Below are positions 9,685 to 62,396 of a stretch of 64,000 nucleotides of DNA, one piece after another (position 1 is the stretch's first letter; the number at the start of each line of letters is the position of its first letter). Source of the DNA: Labedaea sp. (GTDB taxonomy: Bacteria; Actinomycetota; Actinomycetes; Mycobacteriales; Pseudonocardiaceae); contig JBJMIG010000059.1 of assembly GCA_045806965.1 (NCBI GenBank), forward strand, positions 2,656-66,655, in the 5' to 3' direction. The notes below the pieces were generated by a model that was not told the origin of the DNA, ran no database searches, and saw only the letters and a list, made by a program, of their open reading frames with translations. Position numbers and translations under genes: made by a program.

Positions 9685-9694
9685 ACGCCGTCCG

Positions 9695-9812
9695 TTCACA
9701 GCGCAAGGTGACATTGCGCTGTTAGAACCGTAGGAAGGTCACCTTCCGCTGTATCGGCGGTCGAGCGCGGCGTCGGCTCGGCGGTACAGCGCAAGGTGAC
9801 ATTGCGCTGTAC
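9695..9812. repeat. composite palindromic repeat, locus R1 (3 hairpin cores)
   Basis: ACAGCGCAAGGTGACATTGCGCTGT at 9698-9722 and again at 9786-9810. Variant GGAAGGTCACCTTCCGCTGT at 9733-9752. Confidence 0.85.
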
Positions 9813-9909
9813 GTCGGCCACCGGCGGGTGGTGTCTTTCGCCCGGCGGTAGCAAGGACGACCTGTCCGGCGATGACATAAGCACAGATGCTGGCGCGCGA
9901 GGGCTGCCG

Positions 9910-17287: not shown

Positions 17288-18862
17288 ATGGCGGATGCGT
17301 ACGACTACGTGGTTGTTGGGGCCGGCAGCGCGGGGTGCGTGCTGGCGAACCGGCTGACCGAGAACCCGTCGGTCTCGGTGCTGCTGCTTGAGGCAGGCGG
17401 TGCGGACGACGCCGACGAGATCCACATCCCGGCCGCGTTCTCGACCCTGTTCAAGACCAAGTGGGACTGGAACTACGAGACCGTCGAGCAGAAGCAGCTC
17501 GGCGGCCGGCCGACGTACTGGCCACGGATGAAGGCGCTCGGCGGCTGCTCGTCGATGAACGCCATGATCTACATCCGGGGCAACCGGGCCGACTACGACG
17601 GCTGGCGCGACCTCGGCGCCACCGGCTGGGGTTACGACGACGTACTGCCGTACTTCATCAAGGCCGAACGCAACAACCGGTTGAACGCGCCCTACCACGG
17701 CACCGACGGGCCGCTGCACGTCGAGGACCGCCGTTACACCCACCCGACCTCGCAGGCCTGGGTGGAGGCGGCCACGGCATGGGGACTCAAGCCGACCGAC
17801 GACTTCAACGGCGCCGAGCAGGAAGGCGCCGGGCTCTATCAGGTGACCTGTCACAAGGGGCGCCGCTGGTCCACCGCGGACGCCTACCTGCGGCCGGCGC
17901 TCGACCGGCCGAACCTGACGGTGCACACGCACGCGCTGGCCACCAGGATCGTGCTGGCCGGCACGCGTGCGGTCGGGGTGTCCTACCTGCGGCACGGCGA
18001 GGAGGTCACCGCACGCACGGACGGTGAGGTGTTGCTCTGCGGTGGCGCGGTCAACTCGCCGCAGTTGCTGTTGTTGTCCGGCATCGGGCCGGCCGAGCAC
18101 CTGCGCGAGCTGGACATCGACGTCGCGGTGAACCTGCCCGGCGTCGGCGAGAACCTGCACGACCACCCGGCGGCCGGGGTGCTGTGGACCACGAAGGACG
18201 GCAAGGATCTGGTGGACCTGGCGACCACCCGGCGGCTGTTGCAGTGGCAGGTGACCGGCAAGGGTCCGTTCGCCTCCAACATCGGTGAGTCCGGCGCGTT
18301 CTTCGCCACGAATGATTCCCTTGCCGCGCCGGACATTCAGGTTCACGTCGCGCCGTCGTTGTTCTACGACAACGGGATGCACGAGCCGACCGAGCGCGGC
18401 TTCACCGCCGGCGCCACCCTGGTCGACGTGGCGAGTCGCGGCCGGCTGCGGTTGCGCTCGGCGGATCCCCGCTGGCGTCCGGAGATCGACCCGGCCTACT
18501 ACGCCGACCCGCGCGACCTGGACGCCATGATCGCCGGTGTGCGCTCGGTCATCGAGATCGGCCGGGAGCACGCCATCGCCCGGTTCCTGGACAAGCCGTT
18601 CATGCCGGCCAAGGTGGAGGGCCTCACGGACGAGGAGCTGGCCGATCACGTGCGCGAGGTGACCCAGACCCTCTACCACCCGGTCGGCACCTGCGCGATG
18701 GGTTCCGACGAACAGTCCGTTGTGGACCCGGAGCTGAGGGTTCGCGGTGCGGAGGGGCTGCGCGTGGTGGATGCCTCGGTCATGCCGGTCGTCCCGCGCG
18801 GCAACACCAACGCTCCGACCATCATGGTCGCGGAGAAGGCCGCGGACCTGATCAGGGGCTAA
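17288..18862 (+). CDS. GMC-family FAD oxidoreductase (choline dehydrogenase-like)
   Basis: ATG 17288 after [29 protein letters not shown] signatures and C-terminal HPVGTCAMG. Confidence 0.9.
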
Positions 18863-18985
18863 AAGCGGAAGGTGACATTCCGCGGTTCGCACCGCGGAAT
18901 GTCACCTTGCGCGGTATGGCCGAGCGATCCGAAGCTGGTGCGACAGCCGCCCGAGCGAGGAACGAGCGAGGGCAGAAGATACCGC
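18863..18985. repeat. composite palindromic repeat, locus R2 (2 inverted cores plus tail)
   Basis: GCGGAAGGTGACATTCCGCGG-ttcgca-CCGCGGAATGTCACCTTGCGC, followed by a tail whose reverse complement is GTATCTTCTGCCCTCGCTCGTTCCTCGCTCGGGCGGCT. Confidence 0.85.
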
Positions 18986-18988
18986 CGG

Positions 18989-33688: not shown

Positions 33689-34854
33689 TCAGTAGCCGAC
33701 GTAACCGCCACCGCCGTGGATCGCCTTGATGCCCGGCACGTTGCCGAGCGAACCGTAGCGGCTGACCGAGTAGCGGACGCCGGCGATGATGTTGTCCACC
33801 GGGTTCCAGATGTCGTTGTGGCCGGGCAACTTGTGCGCGTTGAACGTGGAGTCGATGCACTGCATCAGGCCCTTGGACGGGTGACCGGCCGCCGCGTTGG
33901 AGTCCCACAGGTTGATCGCCTTGGGGTTGCCGCCGGACTCGTGCTGGATGATCTGCCAGATGTACTGGGCGTCGGCCTCGCTGACGTTGATCCCGTTCTG
34001 ACGCAGGATCTCGATCGCCTGCTTGATCCACTCCTGGACGTTGCCCGGCGGCGGGCCGCCGGTCGGGGGACCGCCGCTCGAGCCGAGGCCGCCACCTCCT
34101 CCGCCGCCGCCACCGGTGGGACCACCGCCACCACCGCCGGTCGGGCCGCCGCCCGCCGCACCGGCGCCGGTGCCGGTGCTGCCGTTGCCGCCGCTGCCCG
34201 GGGGCGGGCTGTCGGTGGTACCGGACGGCGCGGTCTGGCCGGGCGGTGTCGGCGTCCACTCGATCGGTGTGCCGGGTTGCGGGGTGAACGGCTGGGTGTT
34301 CGGGTCGGACATCGAGGAGAACGTGCTGGCCGGGCTGGCCGCGCCGGCCAGTGTCCCGGCCGCGGCGCTCAGCACGGCCTCGGTGCCGTCGAGGTGCTTG
34401 CGGATGTCCCCGGCGGCCTCGCCGCAGATTTCCCTGGTGTACCCGTCGAGCTGGGCCTGGTCGGCGTCCTTGTGGTTGCGGAGCCAGGTGTTGATCTCGG
34501 TGAGCGCCTGGTCGCAGCGGGTCTGGACATAGCTCTTGGCGCTGGTGAGGCCTCCGCCACCTTGTTGAGCGCACCGGCCGCCTGGGTCATCGCGCCGCCG
34601 ACGTCCGTGCCGGCCTTGCCGAATCGGTCCATGTAGGCGACGAACTGGTCCGCCGAGGTGCCCTCCCAGGCGGCGTCGAGGCCGCGGACCGCCTTGCCGA
34701 CCGCACCGGCGTTGGCGCTGGCGTTGGTGGCCGCGGTGGACAACCGGGCAGCCGCCGCCGCGACCGCTCCCGGGTCGGCGTTGTCCACCTTGCTCGCCTG
34801 AGCGGTCACCAGGTCGCCGCCCGCGTACCTGGCCAGGTCACCCGCCGCGCTCAC
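33689..34854 (-). pseudogene. WXG100-like N-terminal domain fused to a Pro/Gly-rich linker and a C-terminal lytic transglycosylase (SLT/GH23), interrupted by a 1-nt frameshift near 34548-34553
   Basis: Frame A runs from GTG 34854 and reads ...LDAAWEGTSADQFVAYMDRFGKAGTDVGGAMTQAAGALNKVAEA. It then degenerates into low-GC3 junk. Frame B becomes GC3-rich and protein-like from the same point (LTSAKSYVQTRCDQALTEINTWLRNHKDADQAQLDGY...) and ends in IIQHESGGNPKAINLWDSNAAAGHPSKGLMQ. Confidence 0.6.
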
Positions 34855-35162
34855 AGCAGCCTCACCTCTGGGGTCATCGAACGGACGTTGTTGTCCTCGG
34901 TGTTCTGCACGCTCCGCACCACCGCGTCCAGCGACCGCGCCACCTGGTCCAACGTGTTCTCCGCGGCGGTGAACTCCTTGTGCATCGCGGAGTTCAGCGC
35001 GTCGACGGCGCGGGCCACCGCGGCCGAACTCGTCAGCTCGCCGTACGCCGCGGCATTCCCGCCGCCCTCCGGGAACGTGTCCGCGATCTCGCCGAACTTC
35101 GGCTTGTAGTCCTGCGCCCGGCGCATGCAGTCGTTGATCGCCTCGATGTTGTAACTGGGCAC
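34851..35162 (-). CDS. EspC/DUF2580-like small helical type VII secretion-associated protein
   Basis: 103 aa from GTG 35162 (GGAGGG 9 nt upstream). Central AAYGEL motif and helical flanks, as in EspC-like proteins. Stop overlaps the start of the next gene (GTGA). Confidence 0.55.
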   Translation of the reverse strand: MPSYNIEAINDCMRRAQDYKPKFGEIADTFPEGGGNAAAYGELTSSAAVARAVDALNSAMHKEFTAAENTLDQVARSLDAVVRSVQNTEDNNVRSMTPEVRLL

Positions 35163-35235
35163 GTTGGCACACCCTCCACGCTCGCTCCGGTTCGGACGCG
35201 ACGGCGCGCCGCGAGGTTCCCGCCACACCGCCTCC

Positions 35236-35345
35236 GCGGTTTCGTTCGCTCCGTTCGCTCGCTCCGGTTACAGCGCAAGGTGACCTTCCTGCGCTTCTAA
35301 CAGCGCAATGTCACCTTGCGCTGTAAACGAACGGCGCTGTATCCC
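35236..35345. repeat. composite palindromic repeat, locus R3 (2 cores)
   Basis: ACAGCGCAAGGTGACCTTCCTGCGC (35270-35294), TTCTA, ACAGCGCAATGTCACCTTGCGCTGT (35300-35324). Preceded by CGTTCGCTCGCTCC-type tail sequence. Confidence 0.85.
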
Positions 35346-35356
35346 GGGCGGGCCGA

Positions 35357-36124
35357 TCACACCTCGTCCAGTAGTTCCCGGACGAAGCCGGCCAGCATGG
35401 CGTTGTCCGCCGGGGTGACGGTGCTCCAGGTCTTCCCCGCGTTGTTGGGCCTGGTCAGGTAGGCGTAGCGGCCTTCGGGGGTGTCGTGGAAGGCGACCAC
35501 CCGGTCGGCCCGGCGGACCTGCTGGTCGCGCGGGCGGCGCTCCACACCGAACTGGCCCCTGGCGGCCATGCCGGCCAACATCGCGGCAAGGCCCTGGGCG
35601 TCCAGTTGGGAGACTCCCTTGTCCCGCAGGAAACTCGCGAGCTGCTGCGGGGTCTCGGCGCGGGCGTCGGCGGCGTGTAGCAGGTCGGTGTCGACACTGA
35701 CCGAGAAGCCGCGGCCGGCCGGAACCACTCCGGCCACCGACACCGCGGCCTCGGCCAGTGCGGTTGGCCTGGCCGGGATCAGCCACACCTCGCGCGGCTC
35801 GACCACGGCGAGCAGGCCCTGGCCGTTGGCGGTGACCGCGAGCGAGGAGATCTCGCGGTCGGTCCAGACCCAGCTGTCGATGCTGAACCCGGGATACGCC
35901 AACAGGTTCAGCCAGTCAGCGAGCTCCGCCTTGGCGCGCTCGCCCTCGGCCAAGCCGCGCCGCTCGAGATCGTCGAACGCGGTACGGCGCAGTTGGGCCC
36001 GCTCGGTGTGGGTCCGGCCGGGACTGACCATGGTGAGCGCGACGTGCCTCGGTGGCAGCCGCTGCGCCTCCCACAGCACGTCGAACTCCAGCGTGGACAG
36101 CACCACGCTGCCGGTTGCCGGCAC
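35357..36124 (-). CDS. espG: ESX secretion-associated chaperone EspG
   Basis: 255 aa. N-terminal LSTLEFDVLWEAQRLPP hallmark of the EspG family. Immediately downstream of the PPE-like gene. Confidence 0.8.
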   Translation of the reverse strand: MPATGSVVLSTLEFDVLWEAQRLPPRHVALTMVSPGRTHTERAQLRRTAFDDLERRGLAEGERAKAELADWLNLLAYPGFSIDSWVWTDREISSLAVTANGQGLLAVVEPREVWLIPARPTALAEAAVSVAGVVPAGRGFSVSVDTDLLHAADARAETPQQLASFLRDKGVSQLDAQGLAAMLAGMAARGQFGVERRPRDQQVRRADRVVAFHDTPEGRYAYLTRPNNAGKTWSTVTPADNAMLAGFVRELLDEV

Positions 36125-36139
36125 GGTCGTCAGCCCTCG

Positions 36140-37405
36140 TCAGCCCTCGTCGTCATCGTCACCGATCAGCGCGGGCGCGATCGGCCGGTAGTCCTCGAAC
36201 ACGTCCGCCGACTCGACCCCGTACTTGCGCACATGCTCGCCGTCCTCCTCGTCCGGGGCGTTGCCGGTGGCCGGCTGGAGGATCGAGCTGGCCGCCGGTT
36301 TGGGTGATCGCGCGCCGAACTTCTCGGCGTTGCGCACGCTGCGGGCCTCCTCGGGCGGCTCCTGGGCGAGCGGTGACTTCGGTGCGCCGCCTCGACCCTC
36401 GCGCTCCGCTTCGGCGACGCCGCCGCCGGGCGCACCACCCGCGCCCGGCCGGCCGCGCACCAGGCGGTCCTTCTCGGTGGTCGCACCAACCGCCGCACCT
36501 TGCGCTCCCGCGCCGGCGATCGCGGCCGCGTCGGCGACCAGGAGGGAGGGAACCGCACGCGGGCCGAATCCCGGTGCACCCTCGACCGGAAGGCCGGTCG
36601 GCAGCGGCAACACCGGTCCGACGCCGGTTCGTGGACCCGGCTGGCCTGGCAGGCCTACCGGGCCGGGCCCGGGCGCCGGGCCGCCGGGCTGACCGCCGAG
36701 CAACGGCGCTGCTCCCGAGCCGCCGGGGGCCGGTGCGGAGCCAGGGGCGCCGGGTGGTTGGCCAGGAGCGCCCGGGGTGAAGCCGGACCCGCCATGGAAG
36801 CCGTCCACCGGGCCGACCTGGGTTCCGGTGGCGGACTGCTGCGTGACCAGCCCGACGCCGGGCGGGACCGGGAGTGTCTGCACCCCGCCGATGGCTGAGG
36901 AGCTGGCCGACTGGTATCCGTTCAGGCCGGCGATCGCCTGGTCCCGCGCGGCACCGGTGGACGCGACATCCTTGGCGTGGTCGGTGGTGTGCCCGAGCAG
37001 GCCGGCGAACCGGTCGAACCCGTCAAGCTGGGTGGGCCCGCGCAAGGTGCCCGAGTCCGGCGCGCTGTTTCGGGTGTGCGCGAACGATCCGCTCTGGTTC
37101 GACACGCCCTTGGCCGACTCCCCGACCGGCGTCACCGCGTCCTCGGCAAAGACGGAAGCCTGCTTGGTGGCCGCGGTTCCGCCGTCCGCCGCCTGGCCCT
37201 GCCAGGACACCCCGATCTGCTGCAACTGCTCGCGCAGCACCCGGTCCGTCTCGGCCAACCCCCCGGCAAGCGCGATGAGTGCGCGCGCGGCGTTGTGCAA
37301 ACTCTCCGACCCGGCCCCGTTGCGCAACCCGTCGACCTGCTCGGCCAAGGCCTGGTTGTCGTATCCCTCGAACCGCAGGTCGTCGAGCCCGTAGTCGCCG
37401 TCCAT
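36140..37405 (-). CDS. PPE-like domain protein with a long Pro/Gly-rich C-terminal region
   Basis: ATG 37405 after GAGGTGAGG. N-terminal helical PPE-like domain (FEGYDNQALAEQVDGL ... IGVSWQGQAADGG, containing WxG) followed by a low-complexity PG-rich tail. Confidence 0.75.
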   Translation of the reverse strand: MDGDYGLDDLRFEGYDNQALAEQVDGLRNGAGSESLHNAARALIALAGGLAETDRVLREQLQQIGVSWQGQAADGGTAATKQASVFAEDAVTPVGESAKGVSNQSGSFAHTRNSAPDSGTLRGPTQLDGFDRFAGLLGHTTDHAKDVASTGAARDQAIAGLNGYQSASSSAIGGVQTLPVPPGVGLVTQQSATGTQVGPVDGFHGGSGFTPGAPGQPPGAPGSAPAPGGSGAAPLLGGQPGGPAPGPGPVGLPGQPGPRTGVGPVLPLPTGLPVEGAPGFGPRAVPSLLVADAAAIAGAGAQGAAVGATTEKDRLVRGRPGAGGAPGGGVAEAEREGRGGAPKSPLAQEPPEEARSVRNAEKFGARSPKPAASSILQPATGNAPDEEDGEHVRKYGVESADVFEDYRPIAPALIGDDDDEG

Positions 37406-37414
37406 TGCCTCACC

Positions 37415-38053
37415 TCACTTCAACGTTCGCAACGTCTGCACGGCCAACCCGGCCGCCTGTTCGGCCCGTTGGCACAATTCATCAAGCGTGAACGTATGGT
37501 TCCCGTCATTGTCGGTGTTGACCATCAACTGCTGCCCTTCGGCCACATCGACCGACGTGCTGCAATCAGGAGTGTTGTGGCCATTCGCGCCGCGAAACCA
37601 ATAGGTGGCAGCCGGATAGGTCTCCACCGAGGCGAGCCTCGCTTCGACATTTCTCTTGCCACCCAACCACGGCCCTATACCTTCGTTGGTTACCAGTGTC
37701 ACGGCGAACTCGTAGTACGGCGGCTGCCGCTGCACGCTGAGGATGCATTCCGGCATGCCGTTGTACTGCTGCGATTTGTTGGTCGAATTTCGGACCCGGT
37801 TCGCCTTCAGCTGATCCCGTTGCGGCTCGGTGAACAGTGCGCACGGGTCGAGCCCGTCCAGCCTCAACTCCTTGGGCCGCGGCGGAATCTGCACCGATGA
37901 TGACGGGCGCCCCGAGGACGAGTTCGGCGACTGACCGGAGGTGCCAACCGATGTCGCACCGGGCGGCGGCGCGGGCTCGCCGGCCTCGCTCCGGGTGCAA
38001 CCAGCCACGGCGAGCAGCCCGGCCAGAGCCAACACCGCCGGGCAGCTACGCAC
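37415..38053 (-). CDS. DUF3558-like secreted lipoprotein
   Basis: GTG 38053 gives MRSCPAVLALAGLLAVAGC (lipobox). LDPCALFTEPQRDQL motif and conserved Cys pairs resemble DUF3558. The start overlaps the upstream stop (GTGCGTAG). Confidence 0.7.
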   Translation of the reverse strand: MRSCPAVLALAGLLAVAGCTRSEAGEPAPPPGATSVGTSGQSPNSSSGRPSSSVQIPPRPKELRLDGLDPCALFTEPQRDQLKANRVRNSTNKSQQYNGMPECILSVQRQPPYYEFAVTLVTNEGIGPWLGGKRNVEARLASVETYPAATYWFRGANGHNTPDCSTSVDVAEGQQLMVNTDNDGNHTFTLDELCQRAEQAAGLAVQTLRTLK

Positions 38054-38444
38054 CCCTTGTACCACCGAACGCGGCCGCCACCTCTTCGTCGGTGTACCCG
38101 TATGCCTTCGCGCTGTCCCCGCATTGCCGCGCCAGCTTGTACAAGCCGTCGATGTACTGCTTGATCCGATTGGCATAGGAGTTCTCGTGCTCCACGAGGA
38201 GGTCATTCCAAGCCGGCGCGATCCGGATGCTGACGTCGTCGTCGCCCGGCGGCACGACCCGCAGGTCGCCATACCCAGTCCGCAGCTTTTCGTGGAGAAC
38301 GTCCGCCTGGGTTTGGATGATTTTGGCGGCGGCCAGGACGTTGTCCTTGCTCACCGCGAAGGTGTTGGTGGTGAGGGTGGTTGCCTGGTCGAGTTGGGCG
38401 AAGGCGGTGCTGAGTCCCTGGCCGATCTCGCCTGGAAGTTCCAT
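38046..38444 (-). CDS. PE-like helical hairpin protein (non-mycobacterial PE domain)
   Basis: 132 aa, GGGGAGG RBS. PGDDDVS motif comparable to the PE AADEVS region. C-terminal YGYTDEE matches the YxxxD/E export motif. Confidence 0.55.
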   Translation of the reverse strand: MELPGEIGQGLSTAFAQLDQATTLTTNTFAVSKDNVLAAAKIIQTQADVLHEKLRTGYGDLRVVPPGDDDVSIRIAPAWNDLLVEHENSYANRIKQYIDGLYKLARQCGDSAKAYGYTDEEVAAAFGGTRGA

Positions 38445-52258: not shown

Positions 52259-52303
52259 GCAACGCGGCGTGACCCCGGGCCGCGGTTGCGCCCTACTTGG
52301 CCG

Positions 52304-53149
52304 ATGCGAACATCTCTCCGAATCCTGCTTGCCGGTCTCGGCGTGCTCGGCGCCGGCGTCACCCTCACCGCGGCGCCGGTCTCCGCCGCCGGCGCCGACA
52401 CCATCTCAAGCGACCGCGCCACGGTCCGCGAGTATCCGGGCCGGCTGGTGCTGGCCAACGCCACGGCCGGCGACCGGGCGGAGGTGACCGGGTACTGCGG
52501 CTCCTGGGTGCGCGTGCGGATCACCGCGCGGCACCCGATGGCCACCCCGACGGGCTGGGTGCAGCGCGGCCATCTCACCAAGGCGAGCCGCGAGGGCGGG
52601 CTGGACGGCGTGCCGCAGCGCTGCGGGGATGACGCCGACCGGTGGCGGGACTGGGTCGGCGCGATCAACGCCCCGTTCCACTCGCTGCGGAAGGTGGACG
52701 GCGGCTGGCGCCGGATCGTGTTCGGCACCAGGGTGAACCTGGCCGCGACGCCGGACTGCGTGCCGTCGCTGAACTACACCCGGGAGGCGAGCGGGCCGGA
52801 CCGGGTGGACCCGACCCAGCGCGTGAGCGGCCTCGACCTCGGCAACGTCGGCTTCCGCTATGTCACCACCGACGGCTCGGTGGCCCTGGTCAGCTCGCCG
52901 CGCCTTGGCGCGAGCTACGGCGTCTGGGCGTTCGTACCGTCCGCCTGCGTGCAACCGCACAACCGGGCGACGGTGTACTTCGACGAGCCGGTGGTGCAGC
53001 TGACGAACATCGCCGGACTGAAGACCGGCGTCGGCTACCCGGACTCGGTGATCAGGTCACGCGGCTGCTCGGCCGCGGTGCACAGCCCCAGCCACCCGGC
53101 CTTCGGCTACTGGCCGGACCCGGTTCGGCGGCCGGGCTGCCCGGTGTGA
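52304..53149 (+). CDS. secreted hypothetical protein with an SH3b-like N-terminal region
   Basis: ATG 52304 gives signal MRTSLRILLAGLGVLGAGVTLTAAPVSAAG. High GC3. No confident family assignment. Confidence 0.5.
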   Translation: MRTSLRILLAGLGVLGAGVTLTAAPVSAAGADTISSDRATVREYPGRLVLANATAGDRAEVTGYCGSWVRVRITARHPMATPTGWVQRGHLTKASREGGLDGVPQRCGDDADRWRDWVGAINAPFHSLRKVDGGWRRIVFGTRVNLAATPDCVPSLNYTREASGPDRVDPTQRVSGLDLGNVGFRYVTTDGSVALVSSPRLGASYGVWAFVPSACVQPHNRATVYFDEPVVQLTNIAGLKTGVGYPDSVIRSRGCSAAVHSPSHPAFGYWPDPVRRPGCPV

Positions 53150-53232
53150 TCCCGTCACCCGCGTAGTCCAGCTTGGTGACGTTCCACCGTAAGCGTGCAC
53201 ACGCAGGCAACGTGTTCACGTCACCGGCATGC

Positions 53233-53640: not shown

Positions 53641-54674
<1,034 letters not shown>

Positions 54675-54771
54675 GGGAACGTCCTCCTCGGCAACCGACG
54701 CCTGTCCTGGAGAATCCTATTAGGCACCCTTCATCGTGCCGCCGCCAACCGACCAAGGGCACACTGGAGGC

Positions 54772-55053
54772 ATGGCTACCGCACAGTGGAACGGTGAGAT
54801 CATCGCCGAGAGCGAGCAGACCGAGATCGTCGAAGGCAACCACTACTTCCCGATCGAGTCGGTACGCACCCAGTTCCTGCGCCCCTCCGAGACCCACACC
54901 ACCTGCCCGTGGAAGGGCGAGGCGAGCTACTACACGCTGAGCGTGAACGGCGCGGAGAACCCGGACGCCGCCTGGTACTACCCGGAGCCGAAGGAAGCCG
55001 CGGCCCAGATCAAGGACCACGTCGCCTTCTGGAACGGCGTCGAAGTCAGCTGA
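54772..55053 (+). CDS. DUF427 domain protein
   Basis: ATG 54772 after GGAGG. AQWNGEIIAESEQTEIVEGNHYFP ... CPWKGEASYY pattern. Confidence 0.75.
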   Translation: MATAQWNGEIIAESEQTEIVEGNHYFPIESVRTQFLRPSETHTTCPWKGEASYYTLSVNGAENPDAAWYYPEPKEAAAQIKDHVAFWNGVEVS

Positions 55054-55490
55054 GCTGTATCTTCTGCCCTCGCTCGCAGGCTCACTCGGGCGGCTCGCGG
55101 CCTTCGAGCCGACTCGCACGGCTGCGGATCGCGGCTCGTTGGGGTAGAGCGCAAGGTCACCTTCATGCGCTTCTAAACGCGCAAGGTGACAGGTCTTCTG
55201 CGCTCACTCGCAGGCTCGTTCGCGCGGCTCGCGGCCGCTGAGCCGATGTCTTCCCTCCTGCGCTGCTCACTCGCTCGTTCCTCGCTCGCTGCGCTGCTCG
55301 TCGGTCCAGACACCGGCCGGCCGACTCGCACGGCTCCGGATCACGGCCCGTTGGGGTAGAGCGGAAGGTCACCTTCATGCGGTTCTTGACGCGCAAGGTG
55401 ACATTCCGCTGTATCTCTGCGCTCGCTCACTCGCAGGCTCGTTCGCGCCGCTCGCGGCTTTGGCGCCGGTGCGTGAGTTCTGCGCTTGGC
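55054..55490. repeat. composite palindromic repeat array, locus R4 (4 cores plus about 5 tail modules)
   Basis: 55108-55174 and 55320-55386 are near-identical (CCGACTCGCACGGCTxCGGATCxCGGCxCGTTGGGGTAGAGCGxAAGGTCACCTTCATGCGxTTCT), period about 212 nt. The tail module GTATCTTCTGCCCTCGCTCGCAGGCTC... recurs at about 55056, 55193, 55247 and 55411. Confidence 0.85.
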
Positions 55491-55526
55491 TCTGGTCTAC
55501 CTGGGGCCGGTCCGGCTACATTAATT

Positions 55527-55545
55527 GTTAGGAAGTTTTCCTAAC
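55527..55545. promoter_or_regulatory. perfect 8-bp inverted repeat GTTAGGAA-GTT-TTCCTAAC, CsnR(ROK)-operator-like
   Basis: Lies in a conspicuously AT-rich patch 40 nt upstream of the GH2 start codon. The inner 13-mer AGGAAGTTTTCCT differs at one position from the CsnR box AGGAAANTTTCCT as I recall it. Confidence 0.5.
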
Positions 55546-55584
55546 CAATGTTCCGGTAACCGGTGCACGATCCAGGAGGGCGCC

Positions 55585-58500
55585 GTGGAGTTCCCTGCCA
55601 TCCCGAAGAGGTTTCCCTCGATCCTGGCCGCGACGATGCTCGTGGCGGCCGGCCTGGCCGTGCCGCCGGCCGCGGCGGCCGCACCAAGCGCCACGGTCAC
55701 GGTGACCGCCGCACCCGGCGAGTCCACCGCCATCCCCGGCTTCCTGCTCCGCTCGTCGGCTGCCACCCCGGACGACGGCGCGACGATCTCCACCCCGGGC
55801 TACCGTACCGCCGGCTGGCTGCCGGTCCCGGCCCGATCCACGGTGTTCGCCGGCCAACTGGCGAACGGCCAGTTTCCCAACCCGTACTTCTCCACCAACA
55901 TGCGCAACGTCCCGACCGCGGACTACACCGTGCCGTGGTGGTACCGCGCGGACCTCACCCTCGGCAGCGAGACCGGCCTGCGCACCTACCTGAACCTGAC
56001 CGGCGTCCTGGCCAGGGCCGACGTGTTCGTCAACGGCAGCCAGATCGCCGGCAACGCCGAGGTGGCCGGCGCCTACACCACCCACGAGTTCGACGTGACC
56101 GCCCTGGTGCGCGCCGGAACGAACAGCCTCGCGGTGAAGGTCTACCCCAACGATCCCAACCGGGACCTGACCATGGGCTGGATCGACTGGCTACAGACCC
56201 CGCCGGACCGGAACATGGGGATCGTCCGCGACGTGCTGGTGCACCGCGGCGGCGGCGTGGCGCTGCGCGACACGCACGTGGTCACCGTACTCAACGCGGC
56301 CAGGGACCGGGCCAGCCTCACGGTGAAGACCCAGGTGCGCAACGACACCAGCGGATCGTTGTCCGCCATGCTCACCGGAACCGTTGCGGGACAAACACTC
56401 GCTCAGACCGTCAGCCTGGCCGCGCACGAGACCCGGACGGTCAGCTTCCCCGTGGTCACGGTGCCGAACCCGGCGCTGTGGTGGCCGGCCGGGATGGGTG
56501 CGCAGTCGAGGTACGACCTCGACCTGTCCGCCTCGGTGTCCGGCGGCGTCTCGGACACCGCGCACGAACGGTTCGGTGTTCGTGAGGTCAAGGCGGTGCT
56601 GGACGGCAGCGGGCACCGGCGCTACAGCGTCAACGGCCGGCCGCTCCTGATCAAAGGCGGTGGCTGGTCGCCGGACCTGTTGCTGCGCTGGGATTCCCGC
56701 TATGTCGAGGACAAGCTGCGCGCCGTGCTCGACCTGGGGCTCAACACCGTCCGGCTGGAGGGGCACATCGAGTCCAGTGACTTCTTCGACCTCACCGACC
56801 AACTCGGCATCCTCACCATGCCCGGTTGGGAATGCTGCGACAAGTGGGAAGGCGAGGTGAACGGCAGCGAGCCGGGTGAGCGCTGGACCTCGGCCGACTT
56901 CGTCACCGCTAAGGACTCCATGGCCGCCGAGGCGCGGCTGCTGCGCGACCACCCGTCGGTGATCTCGTTCCTGATCGGCAGCGACTTCGCGCCCAACGCC
57001 ACCCAGGAACGCAACTACCTCGACGCGCTCACCGCCGCCGACTGGCCGAACCCGGTCATCGCCTCGGCCGCAGACCGGTCCGCGCCGGTCAGCGGCAACT
57101 CCGGGATGAAGATGAACGGCCCGTACGACTGGATTCCGCCGAACTACTGGTACGACAAGGCGCACTCGGACGGCGGCGGCGCATGGGGCTTCGCCTCGGA
57201 GATCAGCGCCGGGCCGGACGTGCCGACCATGGACACGCTGCGCCGGATGATGACCACCAGCGAGCTGAACACGTTGTGGCAGAACTTCAACGCCACCCAG
57301 TACCACCGCTCGCAGTCCAGCACGTTCAACACCTTGAAGATCTTCGACAACGCACTGGTTGGCCGCTACGGCACGGTTTCCAGCCTGGACGACTACGTGC
57401 GCAAGGCCCAACTCGCCCAGTACGAGAACGTGCGCGCGCAGTTCGAGGCCTACGGTCGCAACTTCACCGACTCCAGCAACCCGGCCGACGGGGTCATCTA
57501 CTGGATGCTCAACAGCGGCTGGACCTCGCTGCACTGGCAGTTGTTCGACTACTACCTCGACCAGAACGGCGCCTACTACGGCGCGAAGAAGGCCGGCGAG
57601 CCGCTGCACGTGCAGTACTCCTACGACAACCGCGGCGTCGTGGTGGTGAACTCCAGGCACGGCGCGGCATCCGGGCTCACCGCGCGGGTCGATCTGTTCA
57701 ATGTGGACGGCACGAGCAAGTTCTCCCAGACGGCCAGCGGGCTGACCGCGCCCGGCGACGGCGGACGGGTGACCGCGTTGACCATCCCGGCTTCGGTCAG
57801 CGGGCTCTCCACCACCTACCTGGCCCGGCTACTGCTGATCGACTCGTCCGGCGCCGAGGTCAGCCGAAACGTCTATTGGCTCTCCACCAAGGCCGACGTG
57901 ATCGACTGGGCGAACAACGACTGGTTCTTCGCGCCCACCACCGCGTTCGCCGATCTCAAGGGCCTCGCCGGCATGGCGGCCGCGCCGATCTCGGCGACCG
58001 CGTCCACGGCCACCTCGGGCGAGGTCACCACGACCCGGGTCACGCTGCGCAACACCGGAACCGGCCGCACACCCGCGCTCTACCTGGACGCGCACGTGCT
58101 GGCCGGGGGCACCCCGGTGTTGCCGATCTCGTGGAACGACAACGCGGTCAGCCTGTGGCCCGGCGAGTCAACCACGCTCACCGCCAGCTACCGCACCACC
58201 GACCTGCACGGTGCGGCACCGTCGGTGCGCATCGCCGGCTGGAACACCGCGCCGTTGACCATTCCCGGCGACGGCGGCACCCCGCCATCGGTGCATCGCC
58301 ACGAGGCCGAGGACGCACAGCTCTCCCAAGGGGTGGCCGAGGCGAACCACACCGGCTTCTCCGGCACCGGCTTCGTCAACTACGACAACGTCGCCGGCGG
58401 CTTCGTCCAGTTCACCATCACCCCGGCGACCGCCGGTCCGGCCACGCTGACCCTGCGCTACAGCAACGGAACCGCCACCAACCGGCCGATGGACGTCACG

Positions 58501-62339: not shown

Positions 62340-62367
62340 TCAGGGCTCCGAGCACCCGATACAGCTG

Positions 62368-62395
62368 GAGCGGACGCACAGTGTGCGCACCGCTC
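62368..62395. terminator. hairpin between the convergent DedA and FAD-oxidase genes (candidate bidirectional terminator)
   Basis: GAGCGGACGCACA-G-TGTGCGCACCGCTC, two 6-bp stem segments separated by a small bulge. Confidence 0.45.
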
Positions 62396-62396
62396 G

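Follow-up and report, generated by a model that had tools for sequence, protein, structure and literature searches.

Studies of REPINs and RAYTs have concentrated on Proteobacteria. REPs and BIMEs are defined, and a GTAG/CGTC tag is attributed to most described REPs, in two papers (PMC2817692, PMC3733652); a third describes a REPIN as a pair of REPs, inverted relative to each other and no more than 130 bp apart, with nested imperfect palindromes at conserved ends (10.1101/2022.05.22.493013). The REP/REPIN/RAYT papers that we examined by keyword make no mention of Actinobacteria. Literature searches that combined REP/REPIN/RAYT with Actinobacteria or Labedaea returned only a generic stem-loop family and REP counts, for Mycobacterium and Corynebacterium, and no description of the sequence family treated here. 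One locus of this family is R4, a repeat array between a DUF427 gene and a GH2 gene in a 64,000-nt stretch of DNA (the window; 71% G+C) from a Pseudonocardiaceae actinomycete. R4 is probably a mosaic cluster of dispersed, noncoding, extragenic palindromic repeats that are REP/REPIN-like, with a BIME-like arrangement.

The gap holding R4 extends from the DUF427 stop codon (TGA, 55051 to 55053) to the GH2 start codon (GTG, 55585); at 531 nt, it exceeds every other intergenic gap of the window in length. An earlier note on this DNA had proposed that reused modules make up the gap, and this was borne out for positions 55054 to 55470; the remainder (55471 to 55584) consists of unique sequence and the GH2 promoter/operator. 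In R4, a composite unit is present twice in tandem, at 55054 to 55246 (193 nt) and 55247 to 55470 (224 nt), each copy with the module order T (tail)–B (linker)–H1–H2–T (Table 1). Hairpin cores had been placed at about 55149, 55178, 55360, and 55390, and all four were recovered. In a global alignment, 190 bases of the two units were aligned at 85% identity, and 11 gaps were introduced (2, 3, 7, 3, 1, 1, 8, 6, 1, 4, and 1 nt); the claim that such indels are not multiples of three holds for most of these but fails for a few (3, 3, and 6 nt). The long direct repeat with a period of about 212 nt was likewise found by repeat search, which aligned 55108 to 55191 with 55320 to 55403 (84 nt, 92% identical, spacing of 212). 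Gapped blastn self-alignment lengthened it to ~190 nt at 76% identity (55068 to 55248 versus 55280 to 55471; E = 1e-31).

Repeat search recovered three copies of a 53-nt tail, and an nhmmer profile of the tail placed four T modules in R4, one of them degenerate, rather than the "about five" counted before. The same profile detected a further tail at 18985 to 18928 on the minus strand. For a 33-nt tail pattern, 0 matches are expected by chance (shuffles). T1 is 86% identical over 42 nt to the distant tail (18985 to 18945; blastn), and the T3 region, which includes a (CGCT)n-like run (TRF period of 4 at 55261 to 55300), matches 18970 to 18952 at 19 of 19 nt (blastn). Alignment of the first hairpin pair indicated that the 3' half of H2 is gone where H2 meets T2.

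Table 1. Modules of R4 and the other REP loci of the window
Feature	Position	Strand	Evidence
Tail module T1; begins GCTGTATC right after the DUF427 stop codon	55054-55112	+	nhmmer, E 2.8e-14
Linker module B1 (GACTCGCACGGCTGCGGATCGCGGCTCGTTGGGGTAG); homologous linker in R2	55111-55147	+	Pattern match and alignment
REP hairpin H1a (AGCGCAAGGTCACCTTCATGCGCT)	55148-55171	+	Covariance model (55142-55177), E 8e-4; fold
REP hairpin H2a, 3'-shortened at the T2 junction	55179-55191	+	Covariance model (55172-55208), E 1.7e-3; alignment
Tail module T2, closes unit 1	55190-55247	+	nhmmer, E 1e-13
Degenerate tail T3 plus filler, opens unit 2	55248-55319	+	nhmmer, E 1.6e-5 for 55248-55297
Linker module B2	55323-55359	+	Repeat search and alignment
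Inverted REP pair H1b + H2b	55360-55412 (cores 55360-55383 and 55391-55412)	+	Covariance model (55384-55416), E 2.4e-9
Tail module T4, right end of R4	55409-55469	+	nhmmer, E 7.3e-10
Locus R1, three single REPs, two with an identical 25-mer	9694-9814	+	Covariance model, E 4.5e-12, 7.4e-11, and 0.04
Locus R2, tail, linker, and near-perfect inverted REP pair	18858-18988	-	Covariance model, E 3e-11 and 1.5e-9; tail, E 4.9e-10
Locus R3, inverted REP pair	35229-35356	+	Covariance model, E 1.3e-12 and 0.012; alignment with L095

The REP hairpins have the consensus TACAGCGCAAGGTGACATTGCGCTGTA, a palindrome of ~27 nt with a 9- to 10-bp stem. Their 7-nt center, GGTGACA, is almost invariant, and all 17 aligned copies share AA.GT.AC. 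Thirteen copies were used to build a covariance model, which, scored at every position of the window, returned 11 REP units in only four intergenic gaps (9694 to 9814, 18858 to 18919, 35274 to 35328, and 55142 to 55416). Ten of these units had E ≤ 0.05, and the 11th, H1b (55354 to 55389), with E = 1, rests on its 92% identity to H1a; the best match outside the 11 had E = 0.29. The stems also carry compensatory changes (13 doubly changed cells versus 7.1 expected, reached in 3 of 500 shuffles). Noncoding DNA makes up ~5.5% of the window, yet all 11 units are extragenic. Together with the tail near 18.9 kb, this distribution agrees with the earlier suggestion that the R4 modules are part of a dispersed element family. 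High copy number (tens to hundreds per genome) and a single-copy RAYT gene (Y1 HUH transposase) with the same REPs on its flanks are expected of REP/REPIN systems. If the density of ~1 locus per 16 kb (11 units at 4 loci, counted in 64 kb) held genome-wide, the genome would carry hundreds of REP copies.

REP loci start 0 to 13 nt past a stop codon, with most units within ~15 nt of one, and the end of R2 is also 3 nt short of the stop of the convergent cutinase gene. R1 is flanked by an IclR regulator gene and a LuxR/AAA regulator gene, R2 sits between convergent GMC oxidoreductase and cutinase genes in the orientation opposite to that of R4, and R3 is flanked by espG and a WXG100-type gene. 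These neighbors are functionally unrelated: regulators, oxidoreductase/cutinase, type VII secretion, glucosaminidase, and, in the related contig L090, proteasome genes. The T-B-pair composite is present at both R4 and the unlinked R2, in opposite orientations. In most copies the REP flank reads TACAG, and GTAG occurs only in R4 H1a, R4 H1b, and R1b; the GTAG/CGTC tag of most described REPs is not conserved among the aligned copies. No transposase domain was found among the ~60 proteins of the window, a result of little weight for a single-copy gene.

Several other features of the window were recorded alongside the repeats. R3 lies inside a type VII (ESX-like) neighborhood (34369 to 38444) with the WXG100-type gene, espG, a PPE-like gene, and DUF3558, and elsewhere the window carries core metabolism, including purL/purQ/purS, purB, purD, and purA families as well as fructose-bisphosphate aldolase and protocatechuate dioxygenase genes. 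Only one other GATACAGC octamer occurs in the window. It lies in a gap between two convergent genes (62340 to 62396), ahead of a different hairpin (GAGCGGACGCACAGTGTGCGCACCGCTC) that is not detected with the REP model. This hairpin may descend from the REP family in degenerate form or represent a distinct relative.

Stable folds are confined to the individual hairpins and their pairs. A single REP unit folds at -12.7 kcal/mol (z = -5.0), and inverted pairs form one long hairpin at R2 (-29.0 kcal/mol, z = -10.6), at R3 (-28.5 kcal/mol, z = -9.3), and at R4 H1b+H2b (55352 to 55416, folded as DNA; -20.2 kcal/mol, z = -6.6). Pairs in two related contigs, L090 (-22.8 kcal/mol) and L093 (-20.7 kcal/mol), also each form one long hairpin, and z for all five pairs falls between -6.6 and -10.6; the minimum-energy fold of the pair in L091 contains only the second unit's own hairpin. 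For the array as a whole, RNA folding beyond the individual hairpins was not significant (z = -1.8 and -1.15), and we rejected a large structured RNA because the whole-array fold was no better than those of shuffles.

The small ORFs in R4 (MKVT...) are by-products of the repeat, as had been supposed. Their GC3 is 0.61 to 0.76, versus 0.91 to 0.93 for DUF427 and GH2; of the four differences between the two MKVT... copies, three are amino acid changing, and the peptides are alike for the first 19 residues only and diverge completely beyond them. The further suggestion of a structured noncoding RNA locus was not sustained. A search of the whole window against Rfam gave 0 matches at gathering thresholds (at E ≤ 10, only a plant miRNA at E = 8.3), ARAGORN found no tRNA or tmRNA, and a consensus scan of 54600 to 55800 found no sigma-70-like promoter. 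In the same interval, 0 terminator sites (hairpin plus T-run) were found, the hairpins being followed by GTA/GTT and not T-runs, and the array is absent at this junction in every relative compared.

Other candidate readings were also set aside. A CRISPR array does not fit the irregular spacing, the two to four units per locus, or "spacers" that themselves belong to the repeated modules. Readings as MIRU or integron attC elements were ruled out by spacing, unit size, and gene context. The segment GCTCGTTGGGGTAGAGC in linker B (55134 to 55150) resembles a tRNA D-arm, with a 4-bp stem and a 9-nt loop, and as an exact 17-mer it occurs in the window only in the first B copy. We treat this likeness as a coincidence, because the R2 linker does not conserve the motif and the ARAGORN search was negative. 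Whole R4 and the R3 pair had no blastn match in a plasmid collection. A search of a genome collection for GCGSAAGGTGACMTTSCGC gave 87 stretches, all single chance matches to a pattern too short and degenerate and mostly in coding-looking DNA of unrelated phyla.

The nearest nonself protein matches were at 91% for aldolase, 82% for GH2, and 91% for EspG. At the DUF427-GH2 junction, contig L088 has a plain 319-nt spacer, L089 and L092 have a HemolysinCabind gene, L093 has a glyoxalase gene, L098 has a luciferase-like (monooxygenase) gene, and L097 has another gene. No REP or T module was found at the junction in any of these six contigs, and no T module was found in ~100 kb of relatives' DNA. 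A comparison across relatives, proposed in the earlier note, thus finds the array absent at every junction examined and hence lineage specific. Since relatives carry a plain spacer or other genes at this position, R4 is a lineage-specific filling of a variable spacer, with the GH2 promoter/operator left intact. The junction is a hot spot of gene-content change, with synteny kept on both sides.

Approximately 70 nt upstream of the GH2 start is conserved in all junction relatives, including a palindrome, TTGTTAGGAAG-N4-CCTAAC-N-AATGT. In the window, the palindrome TTGTTAGGAAGTTTTCCTAACCAA occupies 55525 to 55548, ~35 nt upstream of the start of GH2 (exo-beta-D-glucosaminidase), and six related contigs show little or no variation in its core, GTTAGGAAG-N4-CTAAC-N-AATGT. 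It looks like a putative operator of the CsnR (ROK-family) type, by analogy with the operator described for actinomycete chitosanase genes (PMC3048496). At the other side of the gap (55045 to 55061), the DUF427 C terminus reads VEVS-stop here versus V(E/D/V)(V/I)T(A/D)-stop in L088, L092, L093, L094, and L098, one residue shorter. The DUF427 stop codon lies inside TGAGCTGTATC, which resembles the REP 3' half TGCGCTGTATC. An R4 element appears, from this junction sequence, to have clipped the end of DUF427 and to supply its stop codon.

L095 (EspG, 91% identical) carries the R3 pair at the corresponding site downstream of espG, whereas L096 (EspG, 77%) lacks it there and has a gap of 75 nt. Divergence at fourfold sites of espG between the window and L095 is 13.5%, and the R4 units differ by 15%. 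Because these two values are similar, the R4 elements are old; assuming roughly neutral drift, the R4 duplication would be about as old as the split from L095, with no recent burst. The earlier description of an active or recently active element is not supported by this divergence. Comparison of the R3 site (35264 to 35328) with L095 (1219 to 1280) also showed that the orientation-giving centers are swapped, GGTGACA then GGTCACC here and GGTCACC then GGTGACA in L095, with the orientation of the inter-unit spacer kept. The swap could be due to loop flipping or gene conversion between copies.

An exact scan of JGI metagenome contigs for a 23-mer marker string of the REP family (CAGCGCAAGGTGACATTGCGCTG) matched only L090 and L091, in each case at one unit of a REP pair just past the stop codon of a core gene; the pair in L090 adjoins proteasome genes. 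L093 carries a diverged REP pair (GCAATGTCACGTTGC) after DUF3151. Given that the 23-mer was found only in L090 and L091, with a diverged pair in L093, the REP family is restricted to a narrow clade, with vertical inheritance and occasional gain or loss. The site in the window matching the L093 pair (53150 to 53232, between the convergent gene at 52286 to 53149 and the DUF3151 gene) holds GGTGACGTT ... AACGTGTTCACGTCACC; alignment and fold (z = -2.0) were unconvincing for a decayed relic of that pair.

Considering these results, we propose that the inverted REP pair often travels here with the nonpalindromic T (~55 nt) and B (~37 nt) modules, and that one T-B-pair-T composite entered the variable spacer where the DUF427 gene ends. 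Its insertion would have clipped the last one or two DUF427 codons, so that the composite now supplies the stop codon. The composite would then have been tandemly duplicated, probably through slippage or unequal exchange between repeat modules, and both copies would have drifted apart by 15% afterwards. Tandem duplication is the favored origin of the doubling, and two adjacent insertions are also compatible with it. As for REPINs, which are copied by tyrosine transposases of the RAYT/IS200-IS605 type, the family may spread through copying of the hairpin in single-stranded form by an enzyme that acts in trans and is sequence specific. The invariant center argues for recognition by a protein over selection for the stem alone. 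A RAYT partner for this REP family would be an extrapolation, because the REP/RAYT papers examined make no mention of Actinobacteria. The present effect of R4 is likely to be mostly passive: it would place strong hairpins in the DUF427 3' untranslated region and add spacing or insulation ahead of the intact GH2 promoter.

It is possible, and rather unlikely, that the hairpins are instead host-selected terminators (factor independent or bidirectional) or 3'-end stabilizers, with R4 insulating the GH2 promoter from DUF427 read-through. The position of most REP units just past stop codons would suit such a role, as would the location of R2 and of the L090 and L093 pairs between convergent genes, the very stable stems, and the fact that two lineages retain the R3 pair at a shared position. 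However, no hairpin is followed by a T-run and the terminator scan was empty, relatives lack the elements at the same junctions, and R3 sits in a 5' region, ahead of the start of the WXG100-type gene. Selection on stems would also leave the invariant 7-nt center, the shared flanks, and the co-travelling T and B modules unexplained. A terminator or stabilizer role is compatible with a selfish origin of the repeats.

We consider it improbable that the REP pairs are MITEs derived from a DDE insertion sequence, with the arms serving as terminal inverted repeats for a cut-and-paste transposase. Inverted arms of 15 to 22 bp around a short interior and presence/absence differences between relatives are consistent with such elements, but no target-site duplication was seen by eye at R1 to R4, L090, or L091, and no insertion sequence or transposase gene lies within the window. 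The pairs are only 50 to 60 nt long, and single units with a nested palindrome stand alone at R1.

Escherichia coli BIMEs bind IHF and gyrase. By analogy, the core AAGGTGACATT might be a predicted binding site of a chromosomal protein (nucleoid associated, gyrase-like, or a global regulator), making R4 an array of sites upstream of GH2. That the core is conserved in sequence as well as in structure, with the divergent L093 family included, would be expected under that proposal. We regard it as very doubtful, since the flanking genes are functionally unrelated, the sites are at 3' ends and not at promoters, and GH2 has its own conserved putative operator downstream of R4. Least credible of all is a multicopy small RNA (a T-B body with the hairpin pair as terminator) or a set of small MKVT... 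proteins: the T-B-hairpin order is fixed and recurs at R2, but there is no Rfam family or promoter-like site in 54600 to 55800, the T-B fold is not significant, T is of low complexity and missing from the ~100 kb of relatives' DNA, and the ORFs have noncoding GC3 and mostly amino acid-changing differences.

Taken alone, R4 as a mosaic of REP-like repeats is a neutral-looking cluster that leaves the reading of the neighboring genes unchanged. As a marker, it points to an uncultured Pseudonocardiaceae lineage with a dense REP/REPIN-like family that has an unusual conserved center and co-travelling modules. For annotation, the MKVT... ORFs should not be called, and the DUF427 stop codon should be recorded at the repeat junction. 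A more ambitious reading, which we put forward as tentative and doubtful, is that this is a REPIN-type replicator population in Actinomycetota, maintained by a single-copy domesticated HUH/Y1 enzyme or by a different one that reads GGTGACA and not GTAG, with T and B as hitchhiking cargo. If a complete genome held hundreds of copies and a transposase gene flanked by them, the REPIN system would extend to a new phylum, and the repeats would also serve as a strain-typing and assembly-break marker for soil actinomycetes.

MIRUs are units of 40 to 100 bp without a hairpin core, whose short ORFs are coupled to flanking genes. Like mycobacterial MIRU/VNTR loci, the family described here is actinobacterial, intergenic, dispersed, and locally tandem; unlike them, R4 has a unit of ~200 nt, most of its indels are not multiples of three, and its ORFs look noncoding. 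It shares with pneumococcal BOX, Neisseria Correia, and enterobacterial ERIC/RU elements a small, modular, dispersed, noncoding, and intergenic character and the possibility of spurious small ORFs. In contrast to those elements, it is without the signature of terminal inverted repeats and target duplication, and its palindromic module also occurs alone.

The arrangement of R4 is closer to that of E. coli BIMEs, which likewise combine palindromic units with conserved nonpalindromic motifs in tandem within one gap, often past a stop codon. The accessory modules of R4 are much longer than theirs (T, ~55 nt; B, ~37 nt) and unrelated in sequence, and its tandem unit is ~200 nt. From REPs and REPINs of Enterobacteria and Pseudomonas it differs in having no conserved GTAG/CGTC tag, in a palindrome whose center is the most conserved part, and in an actinomycete host with 71% G+C, where copies were counted in 64 kb. 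Because the tag is not conserved and a RAYT partner is hypothetical, we withhold the label of a proven RAYT-associated REPIN. By analogy, R4 would nevertheless work like a REP/BIME locus: as in REPs and REPINs, its unit is an imperfect palindrome of 25 to 30 nt that is strictly extragenic and dispersed, occurring as singles and as inverted pairs within 130 bp. Each such pair folds into a single long hairpin whose arms both contain a nested palindrome, the ends are conserved and the interior is variable, and copies persist at the same site across lineages.
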